Made by a program: the position numbers and the translations under genes. A stretch of 59,395 nucleotides of DNA, taken from the IMG/VR virus record IMGVR_UViG_3300046693_000004, positions 1-59,395 of that record; one strand, 5' to 3'. Origin of the DNA: a virus (taxonomy: Duplodnaviria; Caudoviricetes). Below, in pieces: positions 29,214-59,395 of this stretch; the first letter of the stretch is position 1; every line of letters begins with the position of its first letter. The notes beneath the pieces are model-generated. The model saw only the letters and a program-made list of their open reading frames with translations. It searched no databases and was not told where the DNA came from.

Positions 29214-29500
29214 TACGTCTTATCTTCTTCCTGCACTCGCGCCCAAGCAGCATCAAAAGCGTCATCTGCTTGTTTTTCTAATGCATCAAGGCGTGCAAGC
29301 TGTTCTGGAGTAACTTCAGCGTTATCCTTAAGAGCAGAAATGATATTTAGAACAAAAGGTTTAACGTCCTGATACTCTTTAATTGCTAGTGGTACAATTT
29401 CTTCTAGAGTATCAATTACCATACCAATGGTAGAACCACCGGGAACTAATGGAAGTAAATTTTCAACAAGCTTTAAAAGTCCTGTTACAACTGAGTTCAT
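29213..29500 (-). CDS. hypothetical lysis-region protein
   Basis: 95 aa, amphipathic, coupled to the lipoprotein gene. Confidence 0.5.
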   Translation of the reverse strand: MNSVVTGLLKLVENLLPLVPGGSTIGMVIDTLEEIVPLAIKEYQDVKPFVLNIISALKDNAEVTPEQLARLDALEKQADDAFDAAWARVQEEDKT

Positions 29501-29892: not shown

Positions 29893-30022
29893 CGCTTGAT
29901 CCTCATTTCGTTATAAATAAATGCCAGTCTATTAAAATTAGCAAACCAATTGCTAACTAACTTTTCAGCTTCTAAGGATAGCTGTTTATAGCTCATAGCT
30001 TTATAATTTAGCTCCCATGTAC

Positions 30023-30373
30023 TCACGGCGAAGCTCCTGTTGCAATATCGATTACTTGTGCGCGATCTTCTTGATTAGTTCCGACTTTAGGCTGTTGTGG
30101 GTCAGTTGCCACTTGAGCCAATGTTTGATTAGCTTGGGTATTAACTTGAATCCTTTCAACACCCGGCATTGCAGCAACTTCTTTTACTAATGAGCCTTGT
30201 GTTGATAATGCTACGGTTATTGAGTTAAGAATCATATTGGTTAATCCGGCAACAGATATAATACTTTTTGTAATACCGGGACCAAATAAATCTGTAAGCT
30301 GCGCTGTTGATACCATCAGCACACTTAAGATTGCTCCACAAATCGCTAGAATTGTTTTTCCGTTTAAGTTCAT
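30023..30373 (-). CDS. holin-like membrane protein
   Basis: Start MNLNGK after AAGGA; two hydrophobic segments and a hydrophilic tail. Confidence 0.55.
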   Translation of the reverse strand: MNLNGKTILAICGAILSVLMVSTAQLTDLFGPGITKSIISVAGLTNMILNSITVALSTQGSLVKEVAAMPGVERIQVNTQANQTLAQVATDPQQPKVGTNQEDRAQVIDIATGASP

Positions 30374-30384
30374 AATATTTCCTT

Positions 30385-33240
30385 TTAACAAGTTGTAACT
30401 AATGCATTTCCAAGCATTCCGCAAGTATTAGTCGATCCTATACTATCTGCTGCACCCCAAGTACCAATTTTAGAAGAAGTCGGTTGCCAAATAGTTACTT
30501 TATCAACTGTTGATGCTAATAACAATGCTCTACCTGCTGTACATGTACCATTGCATTTAATTAAATTATTAGAAACACTAATACCAGAACTATCGTTAAT
30601 GGTAATTGAGTTGGTTGAGGAATTATTATCAGAGCTAATTGCATTATTAGAGTATATCATATTATAGTTAAAAGTACCTCCTGTATTAGAAGATACTAAT
30701 AAGGCTCTAGGTGCATTATCATTAATGTTCCCATCAATGATTAATTCAGTCATAATAAAAGTAGATTTACAAGCAGCCGCAGCAGCAGTACCAGCTAATG
30801 TAGTGACATAAACGCCAGCACCACCGGGAGTTCCGCTAGTTTGACTAGCAATTGTAGTACCTGCTGCTACACCAGTTCCTGTTACAGTTTGACCTAAAGC
30901 AGCAACACCACCAGTAACTATTGTACCTGTAACACCTGTTACAGTCATATTAGTACCGGATTGTGTACAAGTAAAACTAGCAGAAACGCTATCTAACTGA
31001 ATTGATGCTGTTGGAGTACCAGTTCCAACTAACAAATTATGGTGAATATGTAATTCTGAGGTTTGGCCTCCAATATTTAAATAAACAGGTCGCGGGGCAA
31101 ATATCTGATTATTAGTTAAATTAAAAGCACCACCTGATTGCCAAAGTAATCCAATAGTATTTGAAGTAATAGGTGCAAAAACCTGAAAATAATTATCCCG
31201 AATAATATTACCTCCGCTATCTGGTGCAAGAGGATTAGAAACTTTAACACCATAATTATAATATGGCGACACAGTGCTATTTTTAATTGTACCGTTTAAA
31301 GAATTAAGCAAATTAATTCCAGAAGTACCATTTGTTACATTAACGCTATCTATTACTCCACCAATATTATTATATGTATTGTTACCATATTGTATTCCAA
31401 CTACTCCAGTTGTAGAAAGAGAAGGATACGAGCAGGTTAAATTTTTAACATTAAGTGTTTTATTAGCACTAGATGGATTAAAGTTAATACAATTTATGGT
31501 ACTTGTAGTTGGAAAAATAAATGTAGAATTTGCTCCATCACCTTCAATTGATACATTTGTTTGTACATTAATAGCACTAGATGAAATAATACATCTACCA
31601 GAAAGTAAAAGTGTATTGCCGGGGCCAGTTAAGCTTTGTACATAAATAGAAGCGTTATTTAATTCTAAAGTATCATCATTTGAACCGTCACATACTGCAC
31701 CAAAAATACTTGCCGGAACGCGAGCTTGCTTAACTAAAATCCAACGCCCGCTACCTACACTTGGCGCTATACAAGACCCACCATCATCCGTACAAGATGC
31801 TCCACTATCCCAATAATAAATTGTGGATGGTGAATCACCATTTGCATAATAGCCTGTCCTAGTAGCCCAACTATATAACCCAGAACCCAAAGCCTTTAAA
31901 GCTGCATTTGTAGCAACTGTAATAGTTGGTGCAGTTACCGTAGGAGCTAAAGAAATGATATTACCAGTACATAAAAGTCCTGTTCCGCAAGCTATGTCAC
32001 CAACCATTAAACCCAATGAAGTAACACCGCTAGCATCTGCGCTATTTTGGTCAGGTGTAATCTTAATAATATAATTTAAAGTTTGTGTAGATTGAACAAT
32101 ACCAAAAGGTGTAGATATTCCACCTTGAGCAGTTCCAGTAAACGTACCTCCACCTCCTAAATGTGCTACTACATCAATTCCTGTAACAGCAACATTATTT
32201 GTAACAACAACTGTTGCCCCCACACCACCTCCACCAAATGAAGTACCTGCTGCACTATTAATAAGATTACCTGCATTATTTAACGTATGTGTGTGACCCG
32301 GATCACCTATGCTAATGCCTCCATTACCCACAGTTAAATTACCACCAAGATTACCAGCAGGAGTATAAGGAGGCAAATTAGATGCAAGTAATGTTTTAGT
32401 TTGTCCGCCACCTTTAGCACCTGTGGCGCTTGCAGTGACACCTAATCCAGTAGAAGTTAAATTAGTACAATCTGTGCCGCCCATGTTACATCTACCAGCA
32501 ACTACATAACCTCTTAAATCAGGAACATTAAATGTAGTAGAACCATTACCGTTCCCGTAAAGAAAAAATACTCCAGTTGTAGCTGTAGTTAAACTAGCAT
32601 TAGTATTCATAGTAACAGTAGTAGAAGTTTTAGAAAGAACAGTAGAGCCTGCTGCAATACAAGTAGTTTCTAAAACAGCACCAGCAGGAATTTGAGATGT
32701 ATCAGACAATCCTGTTAAAATAGGACTACCCGAAGTGCAATTAACATTCTGATTTAAAGTTACAGCAGTATAAAAAGCAGCATAAGTAATGCGTGAAATT
32801 TCTTGCCCATATGCGAATACATATTGATTAGGAGCAACCAAACCAGCCCAAGACTTGACAGTACCAACTAAATCACCATCGCCCGTACCTGTAGTAGAAC
32901 CACCTGTACCAGCAGAAGCGGTTACAGCATCAAAAATAGTAACATTTGCAGATGTGCGGACTAATTGACGGTAAGTACCATCACCATAAATAATAGCTCT
33001 TCCACCAGCATCTAAAATAACCGGATTAGTGTTAGGCGTAGTTTTAGCAGCATCCTGCCATGTCGTCTTAAAAGTAGTGGTCGAGGGGATATAGAAAAAA
33101 ACTTTACCGCTTGAAAGCGGATTGCCATTATTGTCTAGAAATTGGGTCTTACCCTGTGGCAATATAGCGGCGTTCTGCGCAAGAGCAGGATTTAATAAAA
33201 GAAAAGAAAAAAAGAGGAAGTTGATGATAGTTTTCATCAT
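30385..33240 (-). CDS. tailspike / tail fibre with N-terminal Sec signal peptide
   Basis: MMKTIINFLFFSFLLLNPALA|Q; podovirus attachment domain (QFLD.NGNPL..GK...NTNPVILD..GR); tail-collar motif (GNGSTTFNVPDLRG); GHTH; beta-helix start (FGAVCDGSNDDT); 18 Cys. Confidence 0.88.
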   Translation of the reverse strand: MMKTIINFLFFSFLLLNPALAQNAAILPQGKTQFLDNNGNPLSSGKVFFYIPSTTTFKTTWQDAAKTTPNTNPVILDAGGRAIIYGDGTYRQLVRTSANVTIFDAVTASAGTGGSTTGTGDGDLVGTVKSWAGLVAPNQYVFAYGQEISRITYAAFYTAVTLNQNVNCTSGSPILTGLSDTSQIPAGAVLETTCIAAGSTVLSKTSTTVTMNTNASLTTATTGVFFLYGNGNGSTTFNVPDLRGYVVAGRCNMGGTDCTNLTSTGLGVTASATGAKGGGQTKTLLASNLPPYTPAGNLGGNLTVGNGGISIGDPGHTHTLNNAGNLINSAAGTSFGGGGVGATVVVTNNVAVTGIDVVAHLGGGGTFTGTAQGGISTPFGIVQSTQTLNYIIKITPDQNSADASGVTSLGLMVGDIACGTGLLCTGNIISLAPTVTAPTITVATNAALKALGSGLYSWATRTGYYANGDSPSTIYYWDSGASCTDDGGSCIAPSVGSGRWILVKQARVPASIFGAVCDGSNDDTLELNNASIYVQSLTGPGNTLLLSGRCIISSSAINVQTNVSIEGDGANSTFIFPTTSTINCINFNPSSANKTLNVKNLTCSYPSLSTTGVVGIQYGNNTYNNIGGVIDSVNVTNGTSGINLLNSLNGTIKNSTVSPYYNYGVKVSNPLAPDSGGNIIRDNYFQVFAPITSNTIGLLWQSGGAFNLTNNQIFAPRPVYLNIGGQTSELHIHHNLLVGTGTPTASIQLDSVSASFTCTQSGTNMTVTGVTGTIVTGGVAALGQTVTGTGVAAGTTIASQTSGTPGGAGVYVTTLAGTAAAAACKSTFIMTELIIDGNINDNAPRALLVSSNTGGTFNYNMIYSNNAISSDNNSSTNSITINDSSGISVSNNLIKCNGTCTAGRALLLASTVDKVTIWQPTSSKIGTWGAADSIGSTNTCGMLGNALVTTC

Positions 33241-43440: not shown

Positions 43441-43887
43441 TCACTTATACCTTGTTAAAAACTGACTTTGTTCTGTAGTTCTACGTCCAATTATTTCCTT
43501 TGGAATCTTCCAATCCATAATGTGTTTAGCGCAGCCTGCTTTATCGCCAGCGTTAAACAATTTTATTGCTGTTGATTTAGCAAATTTTTCTACATTGAAT
43601 GTAATTGAAACGAATGCATCAAATTCATGATCTTCAGCAGGCACTTTTAATGCATTGTTTACAAGCCTTTCATATTTCACAAGATCATGCATTAGAATTT
43701 CATCACATTCCTGTGCAGTAAATTTTTTGTTCTTAGTGTCTTTATAGAAAGGTTGACCTGCATTATCAGTGTGACCAACGCAACAAGTCCATACGCCTTG
43801 TGTGTCTTTATACCATTTTAAAATCTTACCTTCTCTATCAGTAAGCCTTTGTCTACCTCTTAATGTCATCTTGTAATTTGTGGGCAT
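43441..43887 (-). CDS. endolysin, GH24 (T4/P21-type) lysozyme
   Basis: E-x8-D-x5-T triad: REGKILKWYKDTQGVWT; EFDAFVS.TFN; RR..E. Confidence 0.9.
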   Translation of the reverse strand: MPTNYKMTLRGRQRLTDREGKILKWYKDTQGVWTCCVGHTDNAGQPFYKDTKNKKFTAQECDEILMHDLVKYERLVNNALKVPAEDHEFDAFVSITFNVEKFAKSTAIKLFNAGDKAGCAKHIMDWKIPKEIIGRRTTEQSQFLTRYK

Positions 43888-45371: not shown

Positions 45372-45783
45372 TTGCATTTCCTTTCATTAAAGCAGCAGTG
45401 TCACCACTATTAACATGCTCAAATCTCTTAGTATTCACAATAATTGGAGGCTCTGGCTTACAGTCTAGAACCTTGGTCAAATCAATGTCAGGCAACTTAT
45501 TATCAAACAATGCTGTAGTGTCATCATCGTGAATACGCTCTTGCAACGCAGTCCAAATTTCATGCTTCATTGCAGGACTAGCGTTAGGTTGATTTAGAAT
45601 ATCGATTAAGTGCGATACTGCGCGCGGGATAAATTTAATGAAATTGTGAGCAGCGTAATACCTAGCTGATTTGTGTTTTGAAGTGAGACCTTGAGAACGT
45701 CCAACGTCGTAGAAGACGGCTGCAAATTCTAACGCGGTGCGTTCAATAAGTGTGGTGCGCGGGGAGGCGAGTTTTTTATTCAT
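45364..45783 (-). CDS. hypothetical protein
   Basis: 139 aa, coupled. Confidence 0.6.
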   Translation of the reverse strand: MNKKLASPRTTLIERTALEFAAVFYDVGRSQGLTSKHKSARYYAAHNFIKFIPRAVSHLIDILNQPNASPAMKHEIWTALQERIHDDDTTALFDNKLPDIDLTKVLDCKPEPPIIVNTKRFEHVNSGDTAALMKGNANG

Positions 45784-47831
45784 TCTGTATTCTCAAACGG
45801 GTTGTGGTCAACTTTAACGAGGCGCGGCTTGCGCTTGAATGGGTCATCTGACACCGGGGTAAAAGTTGGTACACCACTTGAGTACAACGGAAATCCCTTG
45901 TTAGCAATAGTTTCGCGCATTTGTGGTGTGATTTTGATTATTGGGATTTTATCACCTTTTAAGTTTTCAATCATTCTACCAACAGTTTCTTCTACCATTA
46001 AATCATGAATACCATCGCGTTCGCTTTCTAATGCTTTAACTTCGTTTGATTTAATAGCTTCGCTATTTCTACCGTTATTAGTCAGTTTGTTAATTTCTTT
46101 AGTATATTCGTCCCAAGCTTTAGCATATTTAGTTTGTGCCTCTTCATCCGGCCTAATTTCATTCTTTTTAATCTTGCTCTTATCTGCAGGTAAATTTTCA
46201 TACTCCACCTTCCCGCCCATCTTTTTAATTAACGCATTAGCTTTAGCTGGCAACATGGTGTCATAAAAGGCTTTCATGCCTTCACCGCCTACTTTGAGCT
46301 CAACTCCACTATATTCTATTGCTCCTGTTAAACCTTCCTTATTATCTTTTATTATTTTTTCAGCTAACTCTTTACCTACAGTATCAGCAAGCTTATCCTC
46401 TGTAACTCTATCTGCTAAAGCATTAGAGGTTTTATGACCCTTTTGAGTACCAGATATATTGTAACTTCCATCTTGCCGCTTAGTAGCTGTTATGTTGTCA
46501 TAATGCTTACTCAAATCATACCTAGCTGCCTGTGCCTCCCCCGGAGTCCAAGACACAGCATCATAACCCTTAGTAGCTGCCTCTGATAACACACGCTTTA
46601 ATGCAAGTTCATCCCAAGTCTTTTTAAATGGTGCATTGGGTACGCCACTTTTAGCATTCCTAACGGCCTCTTGAGCTAATCTGTATTCTTCCTGTAATGG
46701 AATTAATATGCGATCAATCTCAGGCATATCAGGAAATTCTTTGCGATTTCTTAATTCTGCTCTAGCATCTTCTAATTTAGTGTAAGCTGTATCTAATCTA
46801 CTTGTTAAAGCCTTTTCAGCTTCAGGATTAAAATATCCTTGCTTCCTCCCTGCCTGATGCCAATCACTTTGAATTTCTTCAACATGCAATGTCTTACCAA
46901 CTCCGGGTACTTCTCTATCATTCATACGAATATGGGCTAATACATTAGGTTCATCCCAATGGGAGGATTTGTAGTCAGGCATTCCTTTATATCTAGATAA
47001 TCCTTCGATATCTCTATTTTCAGGTTGAATTTTATTCATTATGTCAACCCATTCTGCTTTTTGTTCTGGTGTAGCTTCCCTACCCAAAGCCTCAAGTTCA
47101 CGCCTTCTAGCATCTAATTTTTCGGCCTTATTAGGTACATTTAAAGTTAACTCTCTGTAATTTTCTCCACCCGGCAATTGCCATTGAGAATAGCTATTTG
47201 TCTTACCTTGATAAGTTGGATTTAAATTTTCATTAAACTTAATCCCATTATCCGCAACATGCTGTGCTAATTGTTCCTTAGTTAACGGCTTATCGCCAAG
47301 TCCAGTTAAACTAAATTCCAATTCTTCAGGCTTAACACCCGGTTGATTTTTTAAGTAGCTAGTCCATTGCTCAGGAGTAGCTTTCTGTACCTTTGAACCT
47401 GCAATAGTATTTTCTAAGGTAGAATAAAACTTACCACCAATAGCACCTAGAGCACCTTTTTCAGCTAAAGGAATAGAAGACATTCCAGCTAAGCCAGCCA
47501 TGTCCTGTACACGTTCGATAACAGGCTGTGAGGTATGTCCGCTATCATCAGTGATAGGCACAGCACCAGAATAAACATCACCAGCAATGGTGCTACCGCT
47601 TCTAACCATTCGTTCTGGCCAAGTCTGATAGCGTTCCTCACCACCAGTGCCAAATAACTTATTACCAATCTTACTACCTGCACTTACCTGAAAATCATCA
47701 ATTAAGCGATTATCTGGTAATTCCGGTATTGTAGGCAAAGCTAATTCTTTACGCTTGATAGTGTTAGTTTCAGGATCAATAAAATAATCCTTTGGTGAAA
47801 CTCCAAACTGAGCATAAAGATCATCAGCCAT
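45780..47831 (-). CDS. EEIQSD-motif protein (domain usually embedded in large phage polyvalent/internal proteins)
   Basis: FYSTLE, GVKPEEL, GGENYRE, SHWDEPNVLAHIR, EEIQSDWHQ, PFKKTW, GMKAFYD. Confidence 0.65.
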   Translation of the reverse strand: MADDLYAQFGVSPKDYFIDPETNTIKRKELALPTIPELPDNRLIDDFQVSAGSKIGNKLFGTGGEERYQTWPERMVRSGSTIAGDVYSGAVPITDDSGHTSQPVIERVQDMAGLAGMSSIPLAEKGALGAIGGKFYSTLENTIAGSKVQKATPEQWTSYLKNQPGVKPEELEFSLTGLGDKPLTKEQLAQHVADNGIKFNENLNPTYQGKTNSYSQWQLPGGENYRELTLNVPNKAEKLDARRRELEALGREATPEQKAEWVDIMNKIQPENRDIEGLSRYKGMPDYKSSHWDEPNVLAHIRMNDREVPGVGKTLHVEEIQSDWHQAGRKQGYFNPEAEKALTSRLDTAYTKLEDARAELRNRKEFPDMPEIDRILIPLQEEYRLAQEAVRNAKSGVPNAPFKKTWDELALKRVLSEAATKGYDAVSWTPGEAQAARYDLSKHYDNITATKRQDGSYNISGTQKGHKTSNALADRVTEDKLADTVGKELAEKIIKDNKEGLTGAIEYSGVELKVGGEGMKAFYDTMLPAKANALIKKMGGKVEYENLPADKSKIKKNEIRPDEEAQTKYAKAWDEYTKEINKLTNNGRNSEAIKSNEVKALESERDGIHDLMVEETVGRMIENLKGDKIPIIKITPQMRETIANKGFPLYSSGVPTFTPVSDDPFKRKPRLVKVDHNPFENTE

Positions 47832-50179: not shown

Positions 50180-50407
50180 TTATAAATCGCCTTGAATATA
50201 CATGTTTGGGTTATTAAAGAGCTTTACAGCCTCGTTAACCCACTCAGGCTTAATCTTTAAAGAACCATACAAAACATCTACACTTCCACTATATGCAGGT
50301 ACATAATCACTTATAACTCGCATTGAAATAGTATTAGCAATAGGCAAAGAAATAGCCGGTAGAGCTACGCTGCTTAATAAACCTTTTAAGAAGCCACGCC
50401 TATTCAT
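50180..50407 (-). CDS. Tat-signal protein carrying a coat-protein C-terminus homologue
   Basis: GGAGG RBS; MNRRGFLKGLL twin-arginine motif; ISMRVISDYVP...VDVLYG..IKPEW. Confidence 0.75.
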   Translation of the reverse strand: MNRRGFLKGLLSSVALPAISLPIANTISMRVISDYVPAYSGSVDVLYGSLKIKPEWVNEAVKLFNNPNMYIQGDL

Positions 50408-50408
50408 A

Positions 50409-51104
50409 CTACCCTCCCATCCAATTCGTTCCAGGCCTAAATGCTGGCCTAATAACTCCAGCACCAACAGTTTTAATAGGCTTTTTCATTTGTGTTTCTG
50501 ACTTTAAGCTAGTCGCAAATGTTTGAAATGCATCCGCACCGTGGCTAAATTCATTGTGTAATGGTTCTCTACTAAATGTACCTGTATCCTCATCAACCTT
50601 ATATTGATAGTTACAGAGACATTGCCAACCATCGGCCGTTGCCTCTTCATCGAAATTACAAAGATCAAAGATAACACGAGCAGCCCGAATACCATGCACC
50701 TTTTTAGCAACACGAGGAACAATTTTCACCTTCCCCGGATAGCTATCGCGCAAGATTTTTGCAGTAGAGCGTCCTGCAAGCGTTTCATTATCACCATCAT
50801 GTGGCAAATAATGATAACCATAGTTATAACCCAATGACTGTAAGTGCTGAATATAAAAAGGTATTTTCTTTAATCGATCCTGATAAAAGGCAATTAGATT
50901 ATACTCAATACCAACCTGTTGTACAAACCAAATTGAAGTATAGTCATCATGACCCAAGTCCCAAAAAGTATGAACAACACGCGAAGAGTCATAACGAACT
51001 TCACCCCTACGCTTATCTTTTAAGACTTTCTTAATCTCTTCAGCGTAAATAGCACCATCTAAAACCTGTTTAGTGTTGCCTTCCCACACATGTAAATAAT
51101 CAAT
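50409..51104 (-). CDS. terminase large subunit, C-terminal nuclease part (separate frame)
   Basis: YLHVWEG, WDLG..D, LPHD, HGADAF. Confidence 0.85.
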   Translation of the reverse strand: MDYLHVWEGNTKQVLDGAIYAEEIKKVLKDKRRGEVRYDSSRVVHTFWDLGHDDYTSIWFVQQVGIEYNLIAFYQDRLKKIPFYIQHLQSLGYNYGYHYLPHDGDNETLAGRSTAKILRDSYPGKVKIVPRVAKKVHGIRAARVIFDLCNFDEEATADGWQCLCNYQYKVDEDTGTFSREPLHNEFSHGADAFQTFATSLKSETQMKKPIKTVGAGVIRPAFRPGTNWMGG

Positions 51105-51862
51105 ATCATTTCACGCCTTAGATCGGGCGGGAAAAATTTATTATCATCATGATTGACTTTAACAACAAATGCATATCGCTTGTTGCGAATATGCTGATAA
51201 CGTTGTTTCTCTAATGCAGTAAGATAATCAATATCAATGCTATTATCTAACTTCTCTTTAACAGAATAATAAAATTTTTGGTCTTCTAGGTCAACTTCAC
51301 CGTTAATAAAATCAGGTGCATATTGTTGACGTTTAATTACATAACGTTTATAAATTTCATCATCTTCTAATTCAGGATTAAATGTAAACCACAACTCAGG
51401 ACCAAGCCCAAATGGTCCGCCCATTCCAGCAGGATCATTTTCATGGCGACCACGAATAGTAGGGCCAAGTTTATCTAATGAAGTCTTAGAAATATTTCTA
51501 GCTTCATCAGTCCAGTTAATATCAATTTTAGCTAGTGATTTAATTGATTCAATGTTATGCCGTAAACCAGCAAATAAAAATTCAGAACCAGTGAGCTTAG
51601 AAACTATTCTAGTAGCTTGAATTTGAAAAGTATCTGCTAGACTAGCAGAGTTAATACAATTAACTAATGTTTGATAGGATGATTGCGCGAGTGAATTTTG
51701 AAATTCACGACTACATAAAATACGCAGCTTCTTATGATTAGCGAAAACAGGTAAGGCTGTAGAAGCACCTTCAGTCTTACCTGCTCCACGACCACCATAG
51801 ATAATTTTTAAGCGTGCTGGTTCAAATAAGAATGCAAGCTTTCTGAGAAATTCGATTGCCAT
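51059..51862 (-). CDS. terminase large subunit, N-terminal ATPase part (PBSX-type)
   Basis: YGGRGAGKT, REFQNS, SIKS, WTDEA, PTIR, FNP, VN..DN..FP. Confidence 0.88.
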   Translation of the reverse strand: MAIEFLRKLAFLFEPARLKIIYGGRGAGKTEGASTALPVFANHKKLRILCSREFQNSLAQSSYQTLVNCINSASLADTFQIQATRIVSKLTGSEFLFAGLRHNIESIKSLAKIDINWTDEARNISKTSLDKLGPTIRGRHENDPAGMGGPFGLGPELWFTFNPELEDDEIYKRYVIKRQQYAPDFINGEVDLEDQKFYYSVKEKLDNSIDIDYLTALEKQRYQHIRNKRYAFVVKVNHDDNKFFPPDLRREMILIIYMCGKATLNRF

Positions 51863-51928
51863 AAAATCATTTCATAATTAGCCAAACAGTGAAAATGTTA
51901 AAAATTGCCCACAATTTAAGGAATGTCA

Positions 51929-54355
51929 TCATGGAGGAATAACCACACCTTGATTAGTCAGCATTTGTATTGTCACTCCAGGACTGCCAGCAGTATTGGC
52001 ACTGTACACCGGACCGCTGTTGGCGGCCTTGCCTACCCACAGAGCAAAACCGGGGGCGGTCAGATCATCCAAGCTCTTCGCGCCAGTTACCGCTGACTGC
52101 GTCACGGTGCGTGTCCCGGCGATCATTTCGTTTATGACAGCCCGAGGAAAGGTCGACACGCTCCCATCCGACTGTTTAATCATGCTCCAGTTGTCCAAGA
52201 CAGACAGAGACCATGAAAGCGCCCCCGCTCCAGCGTAGACCGGGTTTGGGGTCGCTGTTAGAGACGAGAACTTGCCCCATAGCAAAAATGTAGACGCGGG
52301 GGTAGTGCCAGCAGCACCGCCCAAATAAGTAGCCGTGTGGCATGACCACAATGGCAAATTGGCAGTGCACCCCGACAACGAAACAGCGTTCTCGTTCCCG
52401 GAGCTATTGACGAAGGTAGCTTGGGGTGCGGGGTGCGGCCGGATGCTAACCGGAGTTATCCCGGCCGGAAATCCGCTCGTTGCGCTCGTTTGGATGTACG
52501 TATTATTAAAGTCCTGTGTCACATCCGTGACTTGAAACAGCCCGGCAGTCTGGCCTGCTATGGCTATAAACGAATTCGCCCCCGGAACGGCCCAACGCGC
52601 TTGGCTTTCGAGTATCCCATAACTCTGCCAGTTCGGGATTGTGATGATCCCGGTCGCACCAAATGTCCAATTCGAAGTTACAGGATGATCGTACCCCCCT
52701 GACGCTATGTCACTCGCAATCACGCAACTGGTGCAAGATACCGAATCCGACCGACCATAAGCATACGCGCCGGGAGACAACCCTGTGCCGGTACTACCCG
52801 TGTCCTGTATCGTGACGTTGGTGCCAACAAATACCTTTGGTGTTCCAAAAATATGCCCGGTAACGGTCGTGCCGGATATGTTGACCCGGTTGATCGACGA
52901 GCTTTGAAAATCAAGAGTTCGGAAGGTGCCGCCCGTAATGTTGATCGTGCCTATCATCTTGTCGATTTCGACAACGCAATTTGAGGCGGTCACGTTCGTG
53001 TAGTAGAAAGTCTCATTCTGCGATGGGATAGAGCATAGGCCGCCTATGAGAGTCGCGTCGGTGAATTTGATCGTCCTGCCATTAGTCGCGAGCGAATTAT
53101 TTGTGGTGTCAGTGATGGTGACACCCTGATAGTCCTGCACCGTCTCCCATGAGTCTTGCAGAAGGTACAAGGTTGCGGGACCACCGTCGTCAACCTCGAA
53201 CTCATTCCCGGTACTAAACTGCGGCCAAGTCGATTTGTATGTGATCGCCAACGGAGCATCGAAACAAACCTGATGCGTGCCTGAATCCGAACTGACGACC
53301 GTCCTGTATTCAAAGAAATGCTGGTTGCTCGGAAATCCGTAAGGGGTGCCCCATATATACTGGATGTTATATCCAGTCATCTGCACCTTGGCGCCGACCG
53401 GGAACAGCGAGGTTCGATCCCCGCCAACAGTGCCGCCACTCGTGTATGTACCCGCAAATAGCGAATGAAAAAGATCAAGGTGCGTGCCGTCGACCTTGCG
53501 GGACCACCAGAGCCCGTTCGTGCTATTGTCCAAGCCACCTGTAGCGACAACGCCCTGAACGAATACCGCGTCTCCATCCGTGTACCCAGTCGTGGAGTTG
53601 ACTGTGAGCCGTACAACGCCGGTTCCGGTTAATGCTTGGCTGGAAAGTGTTTGCGTTGCATTGACAGTGTATGTGCCTGCACCCCCACTGCCGCTCCCGA
53701 ACGCTGTGATGGTCGTGTACGTAATGGGCGTGTTGACGCCGATGGTGGAACCTGACCCTCGAACGATTTGGCCGATCGCAATCGTGCCCGTAACCGATGA
53801 AGCGGTTAGCGTCGTTCCGGAAATGCCTCCGGTGAACGAGGCGTCCCCAACACTGTTGGAAACATTGGAGACCGTCGCAAGCGGCTGCGTGATCAGCGTG
53901 ACGCAGCTATCGCCCGCCGTTGCCGTTGCCGTTCGGACGCTATGTTTGTTGTCCTGATATTGCCCGCGACCGCCGAGCCGTAGCGGAGTTGAGCTGGTGT
54001 TCGTGAGCGCCCCGCCGGAATATCCAGAATAAATGAAATTCTTGATGCCATCGAAGATAAAGAAATTGCCGGATGTTAGTGTCGTTAGTTTGCAATTAAG
54101 CCCATCCGCCAACAGCTTGACTTGGCTCGATCCCTGATTAGCCAGCGCCCACGTCCTGAACGACACAAACGAAGCTGTGTCGTCGGCCACGCCATTGCAC
54201 GTAGCCAATGGAGACGTACAAGGCCCCGATGCTCCCACCGTAACCCCCGTGACAGGGTTGCATGTGATCTGTGGCGTAACAACAGCCGAACCGTGTGTCC
54301 ATCCTGCAACGACCAATAGTATGAAAATAAGAAAGGGTAGTTTTTTCACACTCAC
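51929..54355 (-). CDS. secreted tailspike-like beta protein (808 aa)
   Basis: Signal-like N-terminus KKLPFLIFILLVVAG; CNGVADDT beta-helix start; module shared with the tailspike; FCCH-like insert; 12 Cys; high GC. Confidence 0.7.
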   Translation of the reverse strand: MSVKKLPFLIFILLVVAGWTHGSAVVTPQITCNPVTGVTVGASGPCTSPLATCNGVADDTASFVSFRTWALANQGSSQVKLLADGLNCKLTTLTSGNFFIFDGIKNFIYSGYSGGALTNTSSTPLRLGGRGQYQDNKHSVRTATATAGDSCVTLITQPLATVSNVSNSVGDASFTGGISGTTLTASSVTGTIAIGQIVRGSGSTIGVNTPITYTTITAFGSGSGGAGTYTVNATQTLSSQALTGTGVVRLTVNSTTGYTDGDAVFVQGVVATGGLDNSTNGLWWSRKVDGTHLDLFHSLFAGTYTSGGTVGGDRTSLFPVGAKVQMTGYNIQYIWGTPYGFPSNQHFFEYRTVVSSDSGTHQVCFDAPLAITYKSTWPQFSTGNEFEVDDGGPATLYLLQDSWETVQDYQGVTITDTTNNSLATNGRTIKFTDATLIGGLCSIPSQNETFYYTNVTASNCVVEIDKMIGTINITGGTFRTLDFQSSSINRVNISGTTVTGHIFGTPKVFVGTNVTIQDTGSTGTGLSPGAYAYGRSDSVSCTSCVIASDIASGGYDHPVTSNWTFGATGIITIPNWQSYGILESQARWAVPGANSFIAIAGQTAGLFQVTDVTQDFNNTYIQTSATSGFPAGITPVSIRPHPAPQATFVNSSGNENAVSLSGCTANLPLWSCHTATYLGGAAGTTPASTFLLWGKFSSLTATPNPVYAGAGALSWSLSVLDNWSMIKQSDGSVSTFPRAVINEMIAGTRTVTQSAVTGAKSLDDLTAPGFALWVGKAANSGPVYSANTAGSPGVTIQMLTNQGVVIPP

Positions 54356-55275
54356 CCGCCAATAATCTTGCCGCCACCGCCACCAATCGCTGGTGGTGTT
54401 ATAGTCGCGGAATTACCTCCGAAATTAAACGAATTGGTAACGGTCGGTTGCGTGCCGGTGAAGATAATGTTGTGCAAACCACTCCACTGGATCGTTGAAC
54501 CAGACGCAGATACTATCGTGGCAACTCCGCTATTCACACTGCCTGGGGCGATTAGAATCTGATTTGTCGACGTTCCGACCCAATTAAAGGCGTTTGTGAC
54601 TGTTTGCGTCCCGCCTTGAGGAAAGAAAACTGAATTAGGGGCACCGATATTGAGCGTAGCGAATGTGTTGTTGCTAAAAACATTGATCGCTCCACCGCTA
54701 CTGTTCGCGCTAAACGTAACGGTATTGTAGGTTTTTCCACCCCCGTCAAATTGAAGAAAGCCAGTTCCGACACCTGTATAAGCGATTGTCGATCCATTAG
54801 CATTCAGTGTTAGCGTACCGCCGCCTGCGCTGGCATCCCATAATGTGCCGTTGTTCGAATTGTCGGAAAGAGTCCACGTTCCATTTCCAAGATTGACCGT
54901 TTTAGTACCAGACCCGCTACATCCCATTGAAGGACTGGCAGTCAACGTAACGTTTTTATTATTTGCGCTCCAGTCCAGGGTGCCACCAAACGTCCCACAT
55001 ACAATCCTCTGAAGGTTAATAAGATCAATCGTAACAGTGACGGTCCCTCCTCCCGAGGCGCTGTCAAATGTTGCGATATCTCCAGTATTCATCGGAATAC
55101 TACTAGTAGCTGCACAGGTTCCGGGAACTCCACCAGTAGAACTAGCCCATGACGAAATATTAATAGCTGTAAAACTACCTGTTCCACCTACCCAAAAACA
55201 GTTAGCAGCCGCGTTTGCTTTAGTAATAAATAAAGATACAAGAAAAAGAAGTGCAACACGCATAATAATTTTCAT
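54352..55275 (-). CDS. secreted beta-helix / fibre-like protein
   Basis: MKIIMRVALLFLVSLFITKANA|A; FWVGGTG...W.SSTGG motif; 4 Cys. Confidence 0.7.
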   Translation of the reverse strand: MKIIMRVALLFLVSLFITKANAAANCFWVGGTGSFTAINISSWASSTGGVPGTCAATSSIPMNTGDIATFDSASGGGTVTVTIDLINLQRIVCGTFGGTLDWSANNKNVTLTASPSMGCSGSGTKTVNLGNGTWTLSDNSNNGTLWDASAGGGTLTLNANGSTIAYTGVGTGFLQFDGGGKTYNTVTFSANSSGGAINVFSNNTFATLNIGAPNSVFFPQGGTQTVTNAFNWVGTSTNQILIAPGSVNSGVATIVSASGSTIQWSGLHNIIFTGTQPTVTNSFNFGGNSATITPPAIGGGGGKIIGG

Positions 55276-56183
55276 TGCTGCACCCATGCAATATGTCCTG
55301 CTAGCGGTGTTGCTGCCGAAGTGATTAAGCATAAATCTACATTAGTTCCTGCTGTAGCAGCTACAGCGAAACCACCATTACCCATAGAAACACCACCATT
55401 TGCTGCAAAATTAGGACCATTAGCAGCAGTAGTACCGCCAACTACACCAGCAGTGCCACTACCACAAGTACCGCCTGTACCTTCCACTATACCCACATTA
55501 TCAGCAGCAGCCGAAGTTAGAAGCATATAACAAACATATGTCTTTTTTGACGCCGCTGGAGCTACAATGCGCGTTGTAGTGACTGTAGTAATACTAATTG
55601 GTGTATAAGTTTTAGCTACAGTCTGACAAGGATCGCCAATTTGACCAACTAAATTGCCACCAACATTTAAACCATTATAGCTTGCATTAGCAGGAACAGC
55701 AGCGGCCGTAGCACCAACCCCAACTTGTGAGGATGTAAGAGCTACTAAATTTGTAGTACCGGGCGTAGTTTGATCTATTCCAACTTTACCAATAATAGCA
55801 GAACCGGCAGTTAATGAACCAATAGCATTAGTTCCTGCTGGAATAGCACCAGCAGTGTTAGAAATAATAGTATCTAATTTAGTTAATTCAGAAGTCTGGT
55901 TAGCTGCTGTAGCGACACCTGTAACTGTAATAGTGCCGCTTACTGGAACAACTGTACCACTTGCAATACCTTGAATAGTAATCACATTAGTATTAGCAGT
56001 ACCAGCAGTACCTAAAATACTAGCTCCTGTAGAGCCTACTAAATTAACACCCTGAGATTGAACACCAGCACCAATATCGATTGTACGCATCGTAACTCCC
56101 GTACCGGGAGTTAAAATGACTGCATTATCTGCTGCTTGTGCTAATGTGGGTAAAAGGAATAATAAAGCTAATAGCTTTTTCAT
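55272..56183 (-). CDS. secreted Gly/Thr-rich protein with C-terminal beta-sandwich-like domain
   Basis: MKKLLALLFLLPTLAQA|A; 4 Cys; C-domain paralogous to 56336-56776. Confidence 0.75.
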   Translation of the reverse strand: MKKLLALLFLLPTLAQAADNAVILTPGTGVTMRTIDIGAGVQSQGVNLVGSTGASILGTAGTANTNVITIQGIASGTVVPVSGTITVTGVATAANQTSELTKLDTIISNTAGAIPAGTNAIGSLTAGSAIIGKVGIDQTTPGTTNLVALTSSQVGVGATAAAVPANASYNGLNVGGNLVGQIGDPCQTVAKTYTPISITTVTTTRIVAPAASKKTYVCYMLLTSAAADNVGIVEGTGGTCGSGTAGVVGGTTAANGPNFAANGGVSMGNGGFAVAATAGTNVDLCLITSAATPLAGHIAWVQQ

Positions 56184-56351
56184 TTAAATTACCGTGATAT
56201 ATTGGCTGTTACAAGCATCTGTAAAATCTAATGAATTAGAACAACTAGGACCAACACCAGTAGCACCTTTACCAGCTTTTAAAAGTGGTAGAAATCCTGC
56301 AAAAGCAGCAGTTGAAAGAATTACAAAAGCAATGATTAAAATTGTGCGTAT
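56184..56351 (-). CDS. small secreted peptide, no ATG start
   Basis: (I)RTILIIAFVILSTAAFA|G...CSNSLDFTDACNSQY; fills the gap between coupled genes; start inferred at ATA. Confidence 0.55.
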   Translation of the reverse strand: MRTILIIAFVILSTAAFAGFLPLLKAGKGATGVGPSCSNSLDFTDACNSQYITVI

Positions 56352-56776
56352 GACACAGCACCGGACATTTGAACAGCAGCCGAAGTAGTAGCGCAAAGAG
56401 CATTACCTTGAGGAACTAAAATAACAATCCCCATACCATCACCCTTAGAAATACCTGCCTGAGCAGTTAGGGGATATGGTCCAGTTAAGCTAGTAGTACC
56501 TGTACCGCAATTAGTACCAGTGCCGTAAACTAATGTAAAATTACCTGTACCTCCTGAAATAACATCCCAAGAGGTAACAAAAATAGTTTTACCATTAACA
56601 AGAGCAACTAATTGAGTAGTTGTAGCTGTAGAAATATTAATCGGAACTGAAGTTGCTGCTTGCACAGCAGGAACACAATTAGTGCCATTAGTAGTATAAC
56701 AACTAGCTGTTCTACTTTGTGCTAAGGCAATTGTGGGCAAGAGTAATGCCCACAATAAGATTAGGAGCTTTTTCAT
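56336..56776 (-). CDS. secreted beta-sandwich-like protein
   Basis: MKKLLILLWALLLPTIALA|Q; 4 Cys. Confidence 0.75.
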   Translation of the reverse strand: MKKLLILLWALLLPTIALAQSRTASCYTTNGTNCVPAVQAATSVPINISTATTTQLVALVNGKTIFVTSWDVISGGTGNFTLVYGTGTNCGTGTTSLTGPYPLTAQAGISKGDGMGIVILVPQGNALCATTSAAVQMSGAVSYAQF

Positions 56777-57315
56777 TGAAGTGGCGCCAAGCAAACGGTA
56801 ACAGTAACGCCAACAGATGATTGAATTGCATCAGCAAAATCAACAGCTAATCGATTACCAGCCGCAAGATTAACAACACCAGCCGTAGTAACTAATGCAC
56901 CTGTTTGAGTAGTGTTGGCTGTAGCATTTAAGTTAAAAGCAGTAGATAACAAATCAGTACCAGCACCGGGAGCGGCAGTACCAGTATCTTTAGTTACCTG
57001 AAGTGTAGAGGTTCCGCCAGCAGCTACAGAATGAATTTCACTGATACTTATTACTCGCATTGCACGAGTAGCAATAAAAAATACTTGATCTACCGCAGTA
57101 GTAGGTGCAGCGGCAGTAGCTCCTGTAAAATAATAAGTGGGGCAAATAAGGCCACCATTAATAGCGTCAACCGTTTTATTAAGCTGATTGCCATTAGGGC
57201 TAATAAAACCATTTGGATATTTAAGAAGCAACTGAGAACTAGCATTAGCCTGTTGAGCATGGCTTAAGCTAGGAAAACAAGCCATCATTAAAGCCGCAAG
57301 CAATAATTTTTTCAT
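56773..57315 (-). CDS. secreted Ala/Thr-rich (decoration-like) protein
   Basis: MKKLLLAALMMACFPSLSHA|Q; 2 Cys in the mature part. Confidence 0.75.
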   Translation of the reverse strand: MKKLLLAALMMACFPSLSHAQQANASSQLLLKYPNGFISPNGNQLNKTVDAINGGLICPTYYFTGATAAAPTTAVDQVFFIATRAMRVISISEIHSVAAGGTSTLQVTKDTGTAAPGAGTDLLSTAFNLNATANTTQTGALVTTAGVVNLAAGNRLAVDFADAIQSSVGVTVTVCLAPLQ

Positions 57316-57333
57316 AATAATTTGTTCCTATAT

Positions 57334-57360
57334 AAAAATAAAAGGGGCTAAAAGCCCCTT
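57334..57360 (-). terminator. Rho-independent terminator after the first secreted-protein gene
   Basis: AAGGGGCT/AGCCCCTT stem followed by a T-rich run on the minus strand. Confidence 0.7.
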
Positions 57361-57362
57361 AA

Positions 57363-57944
57363 TTACTGTGTACGGTGCCAAATGCCAACAGTGGCGCTTG
57401 TCTTACTATAAATATATCCAAAACAAGAGGCGGCACCAGTAACAACAGGAACAAGCATTGCAGTTGGTGCTGTAGTGCTAAAAGTATTGCCAGTGCCAGC
57501 GCCGCTAGTAAGAGTAGTGACAATCTGAGTACCGCAGATGCCAATACGTTGACCATTAAGCATGGTGCTTGAAGCAGCAGGAAGATTAATGGTTAATGCT
57601 GCAATAGTACCAGCAGGAGTAACAATAAGTTGGCGCGTTTGAGCATCAACTGTAATAGTATCACCAGTAACAGGAGTAGTAACAATAAGCTTACCGCCAC
57701 CTAATGACTGAATATCAATTTTAGCACTCTGCACACCACTTGCGCCAATATTTGTATCAACTGGAAGAGTTTCGTTACCAGTTAATGCAGGACCGGCAGG
57801 AACAGTCAAAGTACAAACGTTATTGTTGGTACTGGCGCAATAAGACGGTCCATCAATCTGCGGAAAATTAGGCGCAAAAGTCTGAGCCATTGCGAGAGAA
57901 GGAAATGCAGCAACAGCAAGAACTAAAAGTAATTTCTTAAGCAT
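57363..57944 (-). CDS. secreted decoration-like protein
   Basis: MLKKLLLVLAVAAFPSLAMA|Q; PAGTIAALTINLP...W.R pattern; 4 Cys. Confidence 0.75.
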   Translation of the reverse strand: MLKKLLLVLAVAAFPSLAMAQTFAPNFPQIDGPSYCASTNNNVCTLTVPAGPALTGNETLPVDTNIGASGVQSAKIDIQSLGGGKLIVTTPVTGDTITVDAQTRQLIVTPAGTIAALTINLPAASSTMLNGQRIGICGTQIVTTLTSGAGTGNTFSTTAPTAMLVPVVTGAASCFGYIYSKTSATVGIWHRTQ

Positions 57945-57965
57945 GTAAATACGTCCTTTTGGGGT

Positions 57966-58544
57966 TTATCCGACTAGTTTAAGTTTAACAGGTGAATTTT
58001 CTAATATATCATCAACTTTAGATTCATGCTCAATGGTTTTAACCACTTCTTTCTTATCAGGTTCCACAAACTTAATTTCCATAAACCTAGGTTGATTGTT
58101 TATTGTTGTACTGATGGAGTCTTTAGCAATAAATCCTTGTATGTCTGCGTATAAGCGAAGTGCTGCAAGCCTATCTTTTGCTTCAGCAGCATATCGGTTT
58201 TCGCCATTAAAAATAATGCGCTCTTCTGAAAACTCCAGCAGCTTACGAGACAATGCAGCCTTGTCAAGCAATTCTTCCTTGACAGCAGTAATCGCTGAAT
58301 ATTCTTCTTTTGCTTTAATAACTACAGGGTCTTCAAGCCATTTGGTCGATGCCCACAATGCTTTATTAGTTTCTTTGCCAAATATTGAGCAAGCCGCCTC
58401 GAAACTATTCTTGAAATTTTGAGCTAATGCTATACCAAATGCTTGTTTTAATTCTTCATCATCTTTCCAAGATGGAATAACATTCGTAACTTGCGGGGGA
58501 GTTACGATAAAATTAGTGATAAATGTGTGCCAGTTAGGAACCAT
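57966..58544 (-). CDS. terminase small subunit (putative)
   Basis: AKDRLAALRLYADIQGFI helix followed by a beta tail (MEIKFV), typical of TerS; upstream of the terL region. Confidence 0.6.
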   Translation of the reverse strand: MVPNWHTFITNFIVTPPQVTNVIPSWKDDEELKQAFGIALAQNFKNSFEAACSIFGKETNKALWASTKWLEDPVVIKAKEEYSAITAVKEELLDKAALSRKLLEFSEERIIFNGENRYAAEAKDRLAALRLYADIQGFIAKDSISTTINNQPRFMEIKFVEPDKKEVVKTIEHESKVDDILENSPVKLKLVG

Positions 58545-58624
58545 ATACCCACACATAGCAAAGCCCGTTGGCACATTCAAGCACCAACGGGCCTCATTTC
58601 AGCTACCGGACTCCCATGCAGCAG

Positions 58625-59290
58625 CTAAAACACTCTCACAATCAAGGCACCATCATCATCAATCTGATCGTTGTCAACATCAGCCGTAACTGACTTAGCA
58701 ACATATTGACGAATTTGAATACGCCTAAGCAGTTGAGTAAAGTTTGCACCTTCAATCGGCTTATCATCTCCACCTAATTGAATAGTGTTATCTGAATTAC
58801 GCCTAAACTCCTTAACCGTGACTTGGTCTAAAATTTCCTCACCCCTATCATTGTGGGCAGGAACAGACCAATATTGGTTTAAACGTAAGACTTCGCTATT
58901 AACCTTAGCCATTAATTCATCAACAGTTTGATTTGGTTCAGTAACGATAAATAATCCGCTACCAATTTCAAGATCATCAATTTGTGGATAGGGAGATACA
59001 AAGTCATCCTTAAGTAATAAGTCGCTTATGTCGTGAATAACTTTAGGTTCAACATCCCATTTCTTTTTGCGTGCTTGCTGCGGCTTACTAGTGGAGTGAA
59101 CTGAAACAATATCTTCACTAGGACCACCTTCAACACGCTTGCCGCTATGCTTAAGCTTTTCCTGTGAGACTACAACAGGATGTGTTTCAGTAGTTTTATT
59201 AGACTGCGGCTGTTCAAATTTCTGATCCGGCTGATTGACGTTTACCGGCTTGTCATGATCCTTAGGATTATCAGCGGTGCGCTGTTCCAT
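58625..59290 (-). CDS. divergent YPF..VG.SF family protein
   Basis: SPYPQIDDLEIGSGLFIV ... DGALIVRV parallels the 1190-1837 protein. Confidence 0.55.
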   Translation of the reverse strand: MEQRTADNPKDHDKPVNVNQPDQKFEQPQSNKTTETHPVVVSQEKLKHSGKRVEGGPSEDIVSVHSTSKPQQARKKKWDVEPKVIHDISDLLLKDDFVSPYPQIDDLEIGSGLFIVTEPNQTVDELMAKVNSEVLRLNQYWSVPAHNDRGEEILDQVTVKEFRRNSDNTIQLGGDDKPIEGANFTQLLRRIQIRQYVAKSVTADVDNDQIDDDGALIVRVF

Positions 59291-59395
59291 AGCCCTAGTC
59301 CCTTTGTGTGGAAAGAATGGGCAGCTAACGCAGGAGCTTGAAAAGGGTTCCCCTGCCATCCGGGGGAAGATGGCAGGGGCGGGAGGGCACTTGGA

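Follow-up and report, generated by a model that had tools for sequence, protein, structure and literature searches.

A variable gene cluster between the terminase genes of a P22-like soil phage encodes fibre- and depolymerase-like proteins with conserved, Sec-type signal peptides

The IMG/VR record IMGVR_UViG_3300046693_000004 is a complete virus record of 59,395 bp (CheckV completeness 100%, classed as linear) with a G+C content of about 39%, and all of it, referred to here as the window, was analysed. It encodes a P22-like virion module with portal, scaffold, coat, gp4-like adaptor, gp10-like closure protein, ejection proteins and tail protein, together with its own DNA polymerase, helicase and primase-like protein, a soluble lysozyme and two tRNAs. 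The genes for the small and the large terminase, terS and terL, are parted by seven tightly coupled genes, which the original prediction had taken for an operon of exported, disulfide-stabilised proteins. The seven minus-strand open reading frames (ORFs) were found where they had been placed, and matches to PHROG and Pfam families identify the two genes bordering them. The locus is laid out as follows, with a slash marking the predicted cleavage site of a signal peptide.

57966-58580, minus strand, terS (small terminase), upstream border of the cluster (phrog_5334, E 9e-16)
57363-57944, minus strand, g193, ORF with the signal peptide MLKKLLLVLAVAAFPSLAMA/Q (SLAMA/Q) and 4 mature cysteines
56773-57315, minus strand, g180, ORF with the signal peptide MKKLLLAALMMACFPSLSHA/Q (SLSHA/Q) and 2 mature cysteines
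56336-56776, minus strand, g152, ORF with the signal peptide MKKLLILLWALLLPTIALA/Q (TIALA/Q) and 4 mature cysteines
56184-56396, minus strand, g70, hydrophobic core ending ILSTAAFA/G and 2 cysteines in a mature part of about 37 aa
55272-56183, minus strand, g303, ORF with the signal peptide MKKLLALLFLLPTLAQA/A (TLAQA/A) and 4 mature cysteines
54352-55275, minus strand, g326, ORF with the signal peptide MKIIMRVALLFLVSLFITKANA/A (TKANA/A) and 4 mature cysteines
51929-54355, minus strand, g808, ORF with the N-terminus MSVKKLPFLIFILLVVAGWTHG, 12 cysteines and a beta-helix model
50409-51862, minus strand, terL, downstream border, in two frames here (Terminase_3, E 1.5e-28, at 51059-51862; Terminase_6C, E 5e-5, at 50409-51089)

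The genes of the cluster are closely packed, with an overlap of 4 nt at three junctions, g70 overlapping the end of g152 and abutting g303, and the other gaps measuring 21, 47 and 66 nt. The starts of g152 and g326 are internal ATGs which overlap the stop codon of the preceding gene (g180 in the case of g152), and the sole standard in-frame start of g70 is a TTG at 56396 with an AAGG 9 nt upstream; the precursor starting there has 4 extra cysteines ahead of the hydrophobic core. Scans of the seven proteins against Pfam, PHROGs, NCBIfam and PADLOC gave nothing above noise except a short match between g808 and phrog_21413, and the lone row at E ≤ 0.01 from NCBIfam and PADLOC was a 16-bit match of g70 to a permease model whose cut-off is 716 bits. 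No match was obtained when positions 51000-59395 were compared by megablast with 50,697 GenBank phage records, nor when g808 and g303 were compared with the same records by tblastn, in which the low-complexity filter may hide some matches.

Read directly, the N-termini of all seven proteins and of the tailspike of the phage show one or two K/R residues, a hydrophobic core and a small-x-small site, with an atypical c-region in g808; in each of the other six, a K/R n-region precedes a hydrophobic core of 10-14 residues, and a small-x-small site follows it. The pattern claimed for all seven thus stood, including its less canonical form in g808, but the starts of g152 and g326 had to be placed at internal ATGs and that of g70 at a TTG. 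With regard to the twin-arginine motif (S/T-R-R-x-F-L-K), no RR is present in the n-region of any of the seven cluster proteins or the tailspike. A simple rule (K/R present, a 10-residue window with a mean Kyte-Doolittle value of at least 2.0, no D/E) flagged 14 of 88 greedily chosen ORFs of the window, of which 5 belong to the cluster and 9 to the 83 ORFs beyond it; g303 and g70 are missing from this set owing to its overlap filter. The nine include several genuine membrane or lipoprotein genes as well as the tailspike. Otherwise the virion module is ordinary, its portal, scaffold, coat, gp4-like, gp10-like and ejection proteins having no signal peptide. Homologues keep the signals: the rule was positive for 111 of 120 homologues of g303, 34 of 42 of g808, 73 of 120 of g326 and 74 of the 150 listed relatives of g193. 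Most of the nine g303 homologues that failed the rule start without Met or have extra residues before a signal-like stretch, and among the 75 homologues of g808, all of the roughly 42 full-length ones (42/42) have a hydrophobic N-terminus by eye. Judged from these comparisons, the signal peptides are conserved family traits and not a product of chance, and export of the cluster proteins via the general secretory (Sec) pathway is strongly indicated and very probable.

A recount of the mature cysteines returned the even numbers reported before, namely 4, 2, 4, 2, 4, 4 and 12 from g193 to g808, 18 in the tailspike and none in the scaffold and the 457-aa and 697-aa ejection proteins. None of the 93 aligned sequences lacks any of four cysteines of g303 (C186, C218, C240 and C285). 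In the g808 family, all 41 sequences have C53 and C88, and two further pairs co-vary, C151/C364 (33 sequences with both, 7 with neither, 1 with a single one) and C541/C544 (33 with both, 8 with neither). These conserved cysteines would fit disulfide bonds.

The tailspike was found at its usual position after the ejection proteins.

30385-33240, minus strand, canonical tailspike, 951 aa, 18 cysteines, with the signal peptide MMKTIINFLFFSFLLLNPALA/Q, a head-binding domain and a collar domain

Its N-terminus reads MMKTIINFLFFSFLLLNPALA/QNAAILPQGKTQFLDNNG, the signal peptide comprising 21 residues. Residues 34-111 align at E 7e-6 with residues 12-93 of 7eeq, the 'Tailspike head-binding domain' of cyanophage Pam1, and the offset of this alignment, 22, is close to the length of the signal peptide. 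Because the signal peptide sits directly before the head-binding domain, the branch of the original prediction by which exported proteins would join particles is a serious reading. The tailspikes of the genomes G001 (874 aa), G003 (762 aa) and G008 (925 aa) also bear signal peptides (L and G numbers are our handles for the loci and genomes compared), and the signal is kept in L086, L087, L089, L090, L091 and L093. Among five further relatives of the N-terminal domain, four are signal-bearing and that of L092 starts MAVPVLNGKQQFFD without a signal, the identity between signal-bearing and signal-less forms of the domain being 58-64%. No other signal-less spike or fibre was evident among the scanned virion-module proteins. 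Since the phage's only tailspike has a signal peptide, its virions would lack a spike without assembly after export. An in-frame TTG lies just behind the signal peptide, with no Shine-Dalgarno-like sequence seen before it. No head-binding domain was seen in the seven cluster proteins, and none of five records with the tailspike N-terminal domain (four of them signal-bearing; one complete, four fragments) has a relative of g303.

The N-terminal part of g303, g326 and g193 belong to virus families found both with and without a signal peptide. Signal-less proteins of other viral contigs begin with what is the predicted mature N-terminus in g303, ADNAVILTPGTG: an ORF of L016 that aligns to g303 residues 7-155 (E 4e-15) starts M-ADN two codons past a stop codon, and others start MADN or MSDN. 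Mature g326 is repetitive and Gly/Thr-rich, starting with CFWVGGTG and ending with GGGGGKIIGG, and none of its 223 homologues contains a Pfam domain. When 120 of these were sorted by their N-termini, with 21 fitting neither class excluded, 35 formed a signal-less class that starts MA(N/S)RFWVGG, has its Met at the cleavage site of the others and contains 1.7 cysteines on average (an even number in 17 of 35). The 64 N-extended homologues have 4.4 mature cysteines on average (even in 46 of 64), and in 48 of the 64 a Cys replaces the Arg before FWVGG. The predicted cut position thus equals the Met position of the signal-less forms in the L016 protein, in the 35 g326 homologues and in the tailspike of L092. 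An entire signal-less module in the same gene order is present in L105, where a 356-aa fibre, a 278-aa g326-like protein, an 810-aa g808-like protein and a 927-aa protein follow each other; by tblastn the last three gave E-values of 2e-29, 2e-25 and 2e-54, the 927-aa protein resembling a 959-aa protein of L008, and the fibre was left unscored. This module adjoins other fibre-like genes.

The g303 protein is composed of the signal peptide, an N-terminal strand motif (ADN...), a helix (residues 95-111), the motif GSAIIGKVGIDQTTPGTTN and a jelly-roll knob of 120 aa. The motif (g303 residues 123-147 approximately; 55740-55815 of the window) is near-invariant in dozens of viral proteins (loci L014-L082) that are otherwise unrelated, some with and some without a signal, and it is repeated inside a single protein in L032, L048 and L077. 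Homologues of g303 numbered 562 at E ≤ 1e-3 among the scored candidates, none of them with a Pfam domain, and 147 stretches of IMG/VR encode a relative. In a scan for the g303 domain over one genome per species from 185,579 species, 3 loci were obtained, all on contigs of metagenome-assembled genomes (MAGs); at least one of them, L084, lies beside other signal-bearing proteins.

In the AlphaFold2 (AF2) model of g303, the C-terminal jelly-roll (residues 182-303) has a predicted local distance difference test score (pLDDT) above 90, the shaft, with one helix, being less certain. A Foldseek search against the PDB gave no match at E ≤ 0.001, with generic jelly-rolls below significance, and the g303 profile had no match among the PDB sequences. 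Against BFVD, the model had matches at E ≤ 1e-3 to 32 virus proteins; many of these are about 110 aa long, with template modelling (TM) scores of 0.65-0.79, and two are named virion proteins. The mature protein modelled as a homotrimer reached an interface score (ipSAE, interaction prediction score from aligned errors) of 0.85 (median of three runs) versus 0.00 for the best of 3 controls, with contacts over residues 18-303, at least 79% of the contacts common to the runs and a partner pLDDT of at least 81; of 30 proteins solved as pairs of one chain, 20 attained the ipSAE mark, against 1 of 23 solved as single chains, and these counts are a rough guide here, where our own alignment and three copies were used. 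The models support a view of g303 as an intertwined trimeric fibre.

The knob (residues 182-303; 55272-55640) and its homologue in L005 (8001-8366) have 106 of 122 residues in common (87%), and third codon positions match in 36% (36 of 104 codons for identical residues), which means that synonymous sites are saturated; the two sequences come from phages of 39% and 59% G+C. By this comparison, the knob is old and under strong constraint. As its invariant cysteines occur almost only in signal-bearing proteins (111 of 120), the sequences suggest that the knob needs oxidising conditions.

The AF2 model of g808 (pLDDT 92, predicted TM score 0.89) is a right-handed beta-helix like those of phage depolymerases and tailspikes. 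Foldseek matched it to 12 PDB entries at E ≤ 0.001, all of them phage depolymerases or tailspikes save two GH110 enzymes; the best was the depolymerase of Klebsiella phage P560 (E 2e-5), and the K1 lyase, LKA1 gp49 and AP22 gp54 were also matched. The TM scores of these matches are low (0.14-0.29) because the proteins are multi-domain. In the ESM Atlas, the nearest clusters were viral fibre or pectate-lyase-like at 0.87-0.89, below the level of more than a lead. None of 41 members of the g808 family matched Pectate_lyase_3 (PF12708) at E ≤ 0.01 or any other Pfam model, and the lone match of the g808 profile among the PDB sequences was a 50-residue stretch like the I-domain of the P22 coat protein (E 3e-4). 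The N-terminus of g808 resembles what we take to be the usual cap motif of beta-helices. Together, the beta-helix of g808 and the jelly-roll and trimeric fibre of g303 are folds of the kind that had been expected from the sequences.

Among the smaller genes, g193 is the cluster member commonest in relatives. Its homologues, 48-60% identical, lie directly after terS in L008, L081, G008 and G001, all with a signal peptide. An exhaustive search returned 379 relatives at E ≤ 1e-3; nearly all full-length ones carry a signal peptide and full-length ones also have the N-terminal cysteine pair, and the C-terminal half recurs in small and long virus proteins without a signal. A signal-bearing homologue of g180, 61% identical, is present in G001/L081, and no Pfam, PHROG, NCBIfam or PADLOC family was found for g180. 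The g152 protein resembles residues 189-302 of g303 (36%, E 5e-9; BLASTP E 8e-4) and is, as far as sequence tells, a stand-alone paralogue of the C-terminal jelly-roll knob. The mature part of g70 carries the conserved motif CSNSLDFTDACNSQYI, and g70-like peptides are encoded upstream of a g303 homologue in L004, L015 and L073/L074 and adjoin a g152 homologue in L081.

Synteny with the window extends over the whole genome in two records, G008 (58,169 bp, with terminal repeats) and G001 (59,658 bp). The order of terS, cluster and terL is kept in L008, L013, G008 and G001 (in G001 across the ends of the record), and homologues of terS occupy the same position in L008, L013, L081, G008 and G001. 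What lies between the two terminase genes varies. The cluster of G008 has four genes, encoding a g193-like protein, a 134-aa signal-less protein and signal-bearing proteins of 130 aa and 234 aa; that of L013 has five, including proteins of 1028 aa and 765 aa, that of L008 has seven, and that of G001 encodes a 1275-aa protein with a knob-like domain. In the high-G+C locus L004, the signal-bearing version of the module lies downstream of terL and encodes a g70-like peptide, g303-, g326- and g808-like proteins and a 970-aa protein. The third-codon-position G+C content (GC3) is 0.60 in g808 and 0.42 in g326 versus 0.17-0.25 in g193, g180, g152, g70 and g303 and 0.17-0.30 in neighbouring genes, and G+C climbs to 0.55-0.59 across g808. 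Because of this foreign GC3, g808 and g326 may have been imported recently, the suggested donor being a phage of high G+C like that of L004 or L005. With a content that varies among syntenic relatives and two genes of foreign GC3, the cluster follows the pattern expected of host-range modules and would be a variable host-recognition module. The earlier interpretation was borne out as far as conserved signals, cysteine pairs, folds and synteny are concerned, but not in its notion of a fixed 'system', the module holding between four and seven genes in the relatives.

With regard to lysis, the lysozyme (Phage_lysozyme, E 5e-26) is soluble and lacks an N-terminus like that of signal-anchor-release (SAR) endolysins, and genes for a lipoprotein and membrane proteins, which are spanin-like, lie 3' of the tailspike at 28806-30424. 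These genes would fit a diderm host and a canonical holin. Canonical holins form very large lesions.

Our preferred reading, to which we assign a probability of about 50%, is that the seven genes constitute a variable host-recognition module (fibres, a depolymerase-like spike and small jelly-rolls) of a lytic P22-like soil podophage, the products of which are exported by Sec, stabilised by disulfides and joined to tailless heads after the holin has opened the membrane. The step by which exported parts join the particle, on which we are evenly divided, rests mainly on the tailspike argument and the signal-less homologues. The proteins of the cluster would be made late, along with the terminase, and exported together with the tailspike to the periplasm by Sec, and removal of the signal peptide from g303, g326 and the tailspike would leave approximately the N-terminus of the signal-less homologues after loss of Met. 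The conserved disulfides would be formed by the disulfide bond formation (Dsb) system of the host and the proteins would trimerise, and DNA-filled heads without spikes would be assembled in the cytoplasm. A holin would then breach the inner membrane for the soluble lysozyme, and the contents of cytoplasm and periplasm would mix under an intact outer membrane. There, the tailspike would dock on the tail hub by its head-binding domain, as would at least some of the cluster proteins, and spanins would then free the particles. We infer in this scheme the export, the cleavage, the disulfides and the time and place of docking. The scheme fits the soluble lysozyme, the spanin-like genes and the addition of tailspikes to P22 in vitro, as P22 heads without gp9 reportedly become infectious when purified tailspike is added to them. 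The signals and conserved cysteine pairs of the host-recognition proteins, the main tailspike included, suggest a maturation of part of the particle beyond the cytoplasm, by a route not described for tailed phages. More tentatively, a lineage of tailed phages known only from metagenomes may build its virions in two compartments, with heads and hubs made in the cytoplasm and the whole receptor-binding apparatus, consisting of the tailspike and exchangeable fibres and depolymerase-like spikes, passing through Sec, folding oxidatively in the periplasm and being added after holin action, and with families switching between both forms by gain or loss of a signal at the exact N-terminus.

Several points weigh against assembly of exported parts into virions. 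Assembly after opening of the membrane must be fast or costs yield. The conservation of the g303 knob is unusual for a receptor-binding tip, and g808 has no recognisable virion-anchor domain, its beta-helix beginning right after the signal peptide. The signal-less g808 homologue of L105 still has 11 cysteines; therefore, many cysteines alone do not mean export. G008 has a signal-bearing tailspike but no gene of the g303 family, so that the tailspike signal and this family are not strictly linked. The rule for signal peptides is crude, given the 9 of 83 ORFs flagged beyond the cluster, and no cultured phage among the GenBank phage records matched g808, g303 or the DNA of the cluster.

The main rival explanation, which we regard as rather unlikely but well worth weighing, is that the cluster proteins are exported and never enter the virion, the tailspike being the only virion part among the signal-bearing proteins. 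As free enzymes or binders, acting in the periplasm or once released, they might cut capsule, O-antigen or exopolysaccharide for the escape of progeny. Alternatively, they might remove or cover the receptor on infected cells and their debris, which would exclude superinfection and protect progeny. The depolymerase-like g808 without an anchor domain would suit this role, as would the unusual conservation of the g303 knob and the dispensable, variable content of the cluster among relatives. There is also a bacterial counterpart in WceF of Pantoea stewartii, a chromosomally encoded, trimeric beta-helix glycanase of tailspike fold that is exported folded by the twin-arginine translocation (Tat) pathway and is discussed as acting on its polysaccharide (PMC7949094). 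The phage proteins would share with WceF the export of a beta-helix of tailspike fold, but they are phage-encoded, bear Sec-type signals without twin arginine and have conserved cysteines. Free action leaves the signal peptide on the head-binding tailspike unexplained. It also sits poorly with the domains that the N-terminal part of g303, g326 and g193 share with signal-less virus proteins, with the position of the signal-less L105 module beside fibre-like genes and with the g303 model of an intertwined fibre like those of virions. One reading could apply to some cluster proteins and the other to the rest.

We consider it improbable that export is partial, with a cytoplasmic fraction, uncleaved or made from an internal start, entering virions and the exported fraction acting at the envelope. 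The close relation of signal-bearing and signal-less forms, such as those of the tailspike N-terminal domain, indicates that a domain can fold in either place, and the TTG behind the tailspike signal would provide an internal start. This start has no Shine-Dalgarno-like sequence, however, and the near restriction of the invariant knob cysteines of g303 to signal-bearing proteins argues against a cytoplasmic role.

It is still less probable that the hydrophobic N-termini are functionless, or uncleaved anchors that park the appendages in the inner membrane. The atypical c-region of g808 (WTHG/S) would agree with an anchor. The canonical n-region, core and small-x-small site of the other six proteins would not, nor would the recurrence of this pattern in hundreds of homologues of diverged sequence and the coincidence of the predicted cut with the Met of the signal-less forms.

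Finally, it is scarcely credible that the cluster is a moron, a cellular operon for an adhesin or pilus with no relation to the virion. Secreted, Gly/Thr-rich small proteins with paired cysteines do resemble pilins, and g303 has weak fold matches to Ena spore-appendage subunits (E 0.03-0.04), but the g303 domain was confined to the three MAG loci in the scan of cellular species, no usher, chaperone, sortase or secretin is present, Pfam, NCBIfam and PADLOC gave no matches, and no integrase gene was found among the larger ORFs scanned, most small ORFs lying outside that scan. The cluster proteins are phage receptor-binding or appendage proteins and not cellular cargo. Two specific candidates of this kind were rejected as well, a lysogenic-conversion moron in view of the phage's own DNA polymerase and helicase and the lack of an integrase among the same larger ORFs, and chaperone-usher or type IV pili in view of the lack of assembly genes and of a class III signal.

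To our knowledge, all tailed phages described so far are taken to assemble wholly in the cytoplasm, and the tailspikes we know of are cytoplasmic proteins. In the literature searched, outside of which most subscription journals and supplements lay, no tailspike or fibre of a tailed phage was reported to carry a signal peptide. The 951-aa protein shares with tailspikes of the P22/Sf6/Pam1 type (gp9 class) the head-binding domain, the collar motif, the beta-helix start of the YGA..DD.. type and the gene position after the ejection proteins, and differs from them in the 21-residue signal peptide before the domain and in its 18 cysteines. The g808 model matches the P560 depolymerase, the K1 lyase, LKA1 gp49 and AP22 gp54 (Foldseek E 2e-5 to 5e-4), but unlike phage beta-helix depolymerases of capsule or O-antigen, g808 stands outside their sequence families, has a signal peptide and lacks a virion-anchor domain. 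Virion proteins with Sec signal peptides are familiar from filamentous phages (Inoviridae), whose g3p and g8p carry them, g3p having disulfides and Gly-rich linkers as well. Those phages are extruded through the membrane without head, terminase or lysis, whereas here a classical head-tail virion would receive exported parts. Small jelly-rolls with structural disulfides also occur in the Ena endospore appendage subunits, to which g303 is weakly matched (9t3p, E 0.027; 8pdz, E 0.037), but there is no sequence match to these Ena/DUF3992 pili, the fold matches are below significance and g303 is modelled as a trimeric fibre and not as a stacked pilus. Late proteins of tailed phages that use host export are known in the form of Sec-exported or SAR endolysins and spanins (PMC6116005). 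In contrast to the proteins considered here, these serve lysis and are neither virion nor receptor-binding proteins.

If exported tailspikes and fibres do reach the particles, virion assembly would span two compartments and depend on the Sec and Dsb systems of the host; this dependency would be new, and it would offer defence a further point of attack. Receptor-binding proteins stabilised by disulfides could then account for the robustness of soil phages, and they would make useful scaffolds. Host-range genes would be misread by annotation pipelines in which signal-bearing proteins are set aside as non-structural, and methods for host prediction and phage engineering would need to handle signal-bearing receptor-binding genes. 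If the proteins act as free exported enzymes instead, they would represent a large virus-only family of secreted depolymerase- or lectin-like proteins without family annotation.

Further observations concern the relatives and the surroundings of the cluster. A conserved signal-less protein of 134-137 aa is encoded within the clusters of L008 (1366-1779), L013 (4558-4965) and G008 (C1:7458-7862) and is absent from the window and G001. These proteins were considered as relatives of g180 or g193 and rejected, as BLASTP gave no match at E < 0.01 and the likeness to the C-terminal half of g193 was by eye alone. G001 encodes an extra signal-bearing protein of 594 aa with 11 cysteines (C1:41239-43023, inside L099) between its gp10-like and gp4-like genes, where the window has a short gap. 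The closest cultured portal is that of Pseudomonas phage PAE2 (47%); PAE2 was rejected as a model of the cluster, being an ordinary temperate P22-like phage whose record annotates no genes between terS and terL.

The terL gene, split in the window, is a single ORF in L008 (482 aa), L013 (456 aa), G008 (485 aa) and G001 (460 aa). After position 51096, in the linker between ATPase and nuclease, 22 nt are missing which are present in soil-metagenome contigs of approximately 90-95% identity; these contigs come from two soil-metagenome runs of one study, with word shares of 0.09-0.18 for the matching runs, and were used for the indel alone. The split reflects either a mistake in the assembly or a genome whose large terminase is defective or divided. 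A 75-aa ORF (50180-50407, minus strand), located between terL and the portal gene, starts with MNRRGFLKGLLSSVALPAISLP, which contains a near-perfect Tat motif, RRGFLK; family-model scans returned no match for it.

After the portal gene, a 683-aa protein without cysteines (45780-47831, minus strand) has a segment like the endolysin family phrog_7348 (E 4e-13); its homologues measure 1018 aa in G008 and 1405 aa in G001, and it may be a virion-borne wall-degrading or ejection protein. The lysozyme gene (43441-43887, minus strand) sits between the scaffold and coat genes, separate from the lipoprotein and membrane-protein genes 3' of the tailspike. Two more genes outside the cluster encode signal-peptide-like N-termini. 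The first (28240-28809, minus strand) begins with MKYLLVIISLLFITNANA/Q, has an odd number of cysteines (3) and belongs to no Pfam, PHROG or NCBIfam family. The second (2562-2870, minus strand) begins with MHKLIWPIAFIAAFVVPVYA/Q, contains no cysteine and has a signal-bearing homologue in G001.

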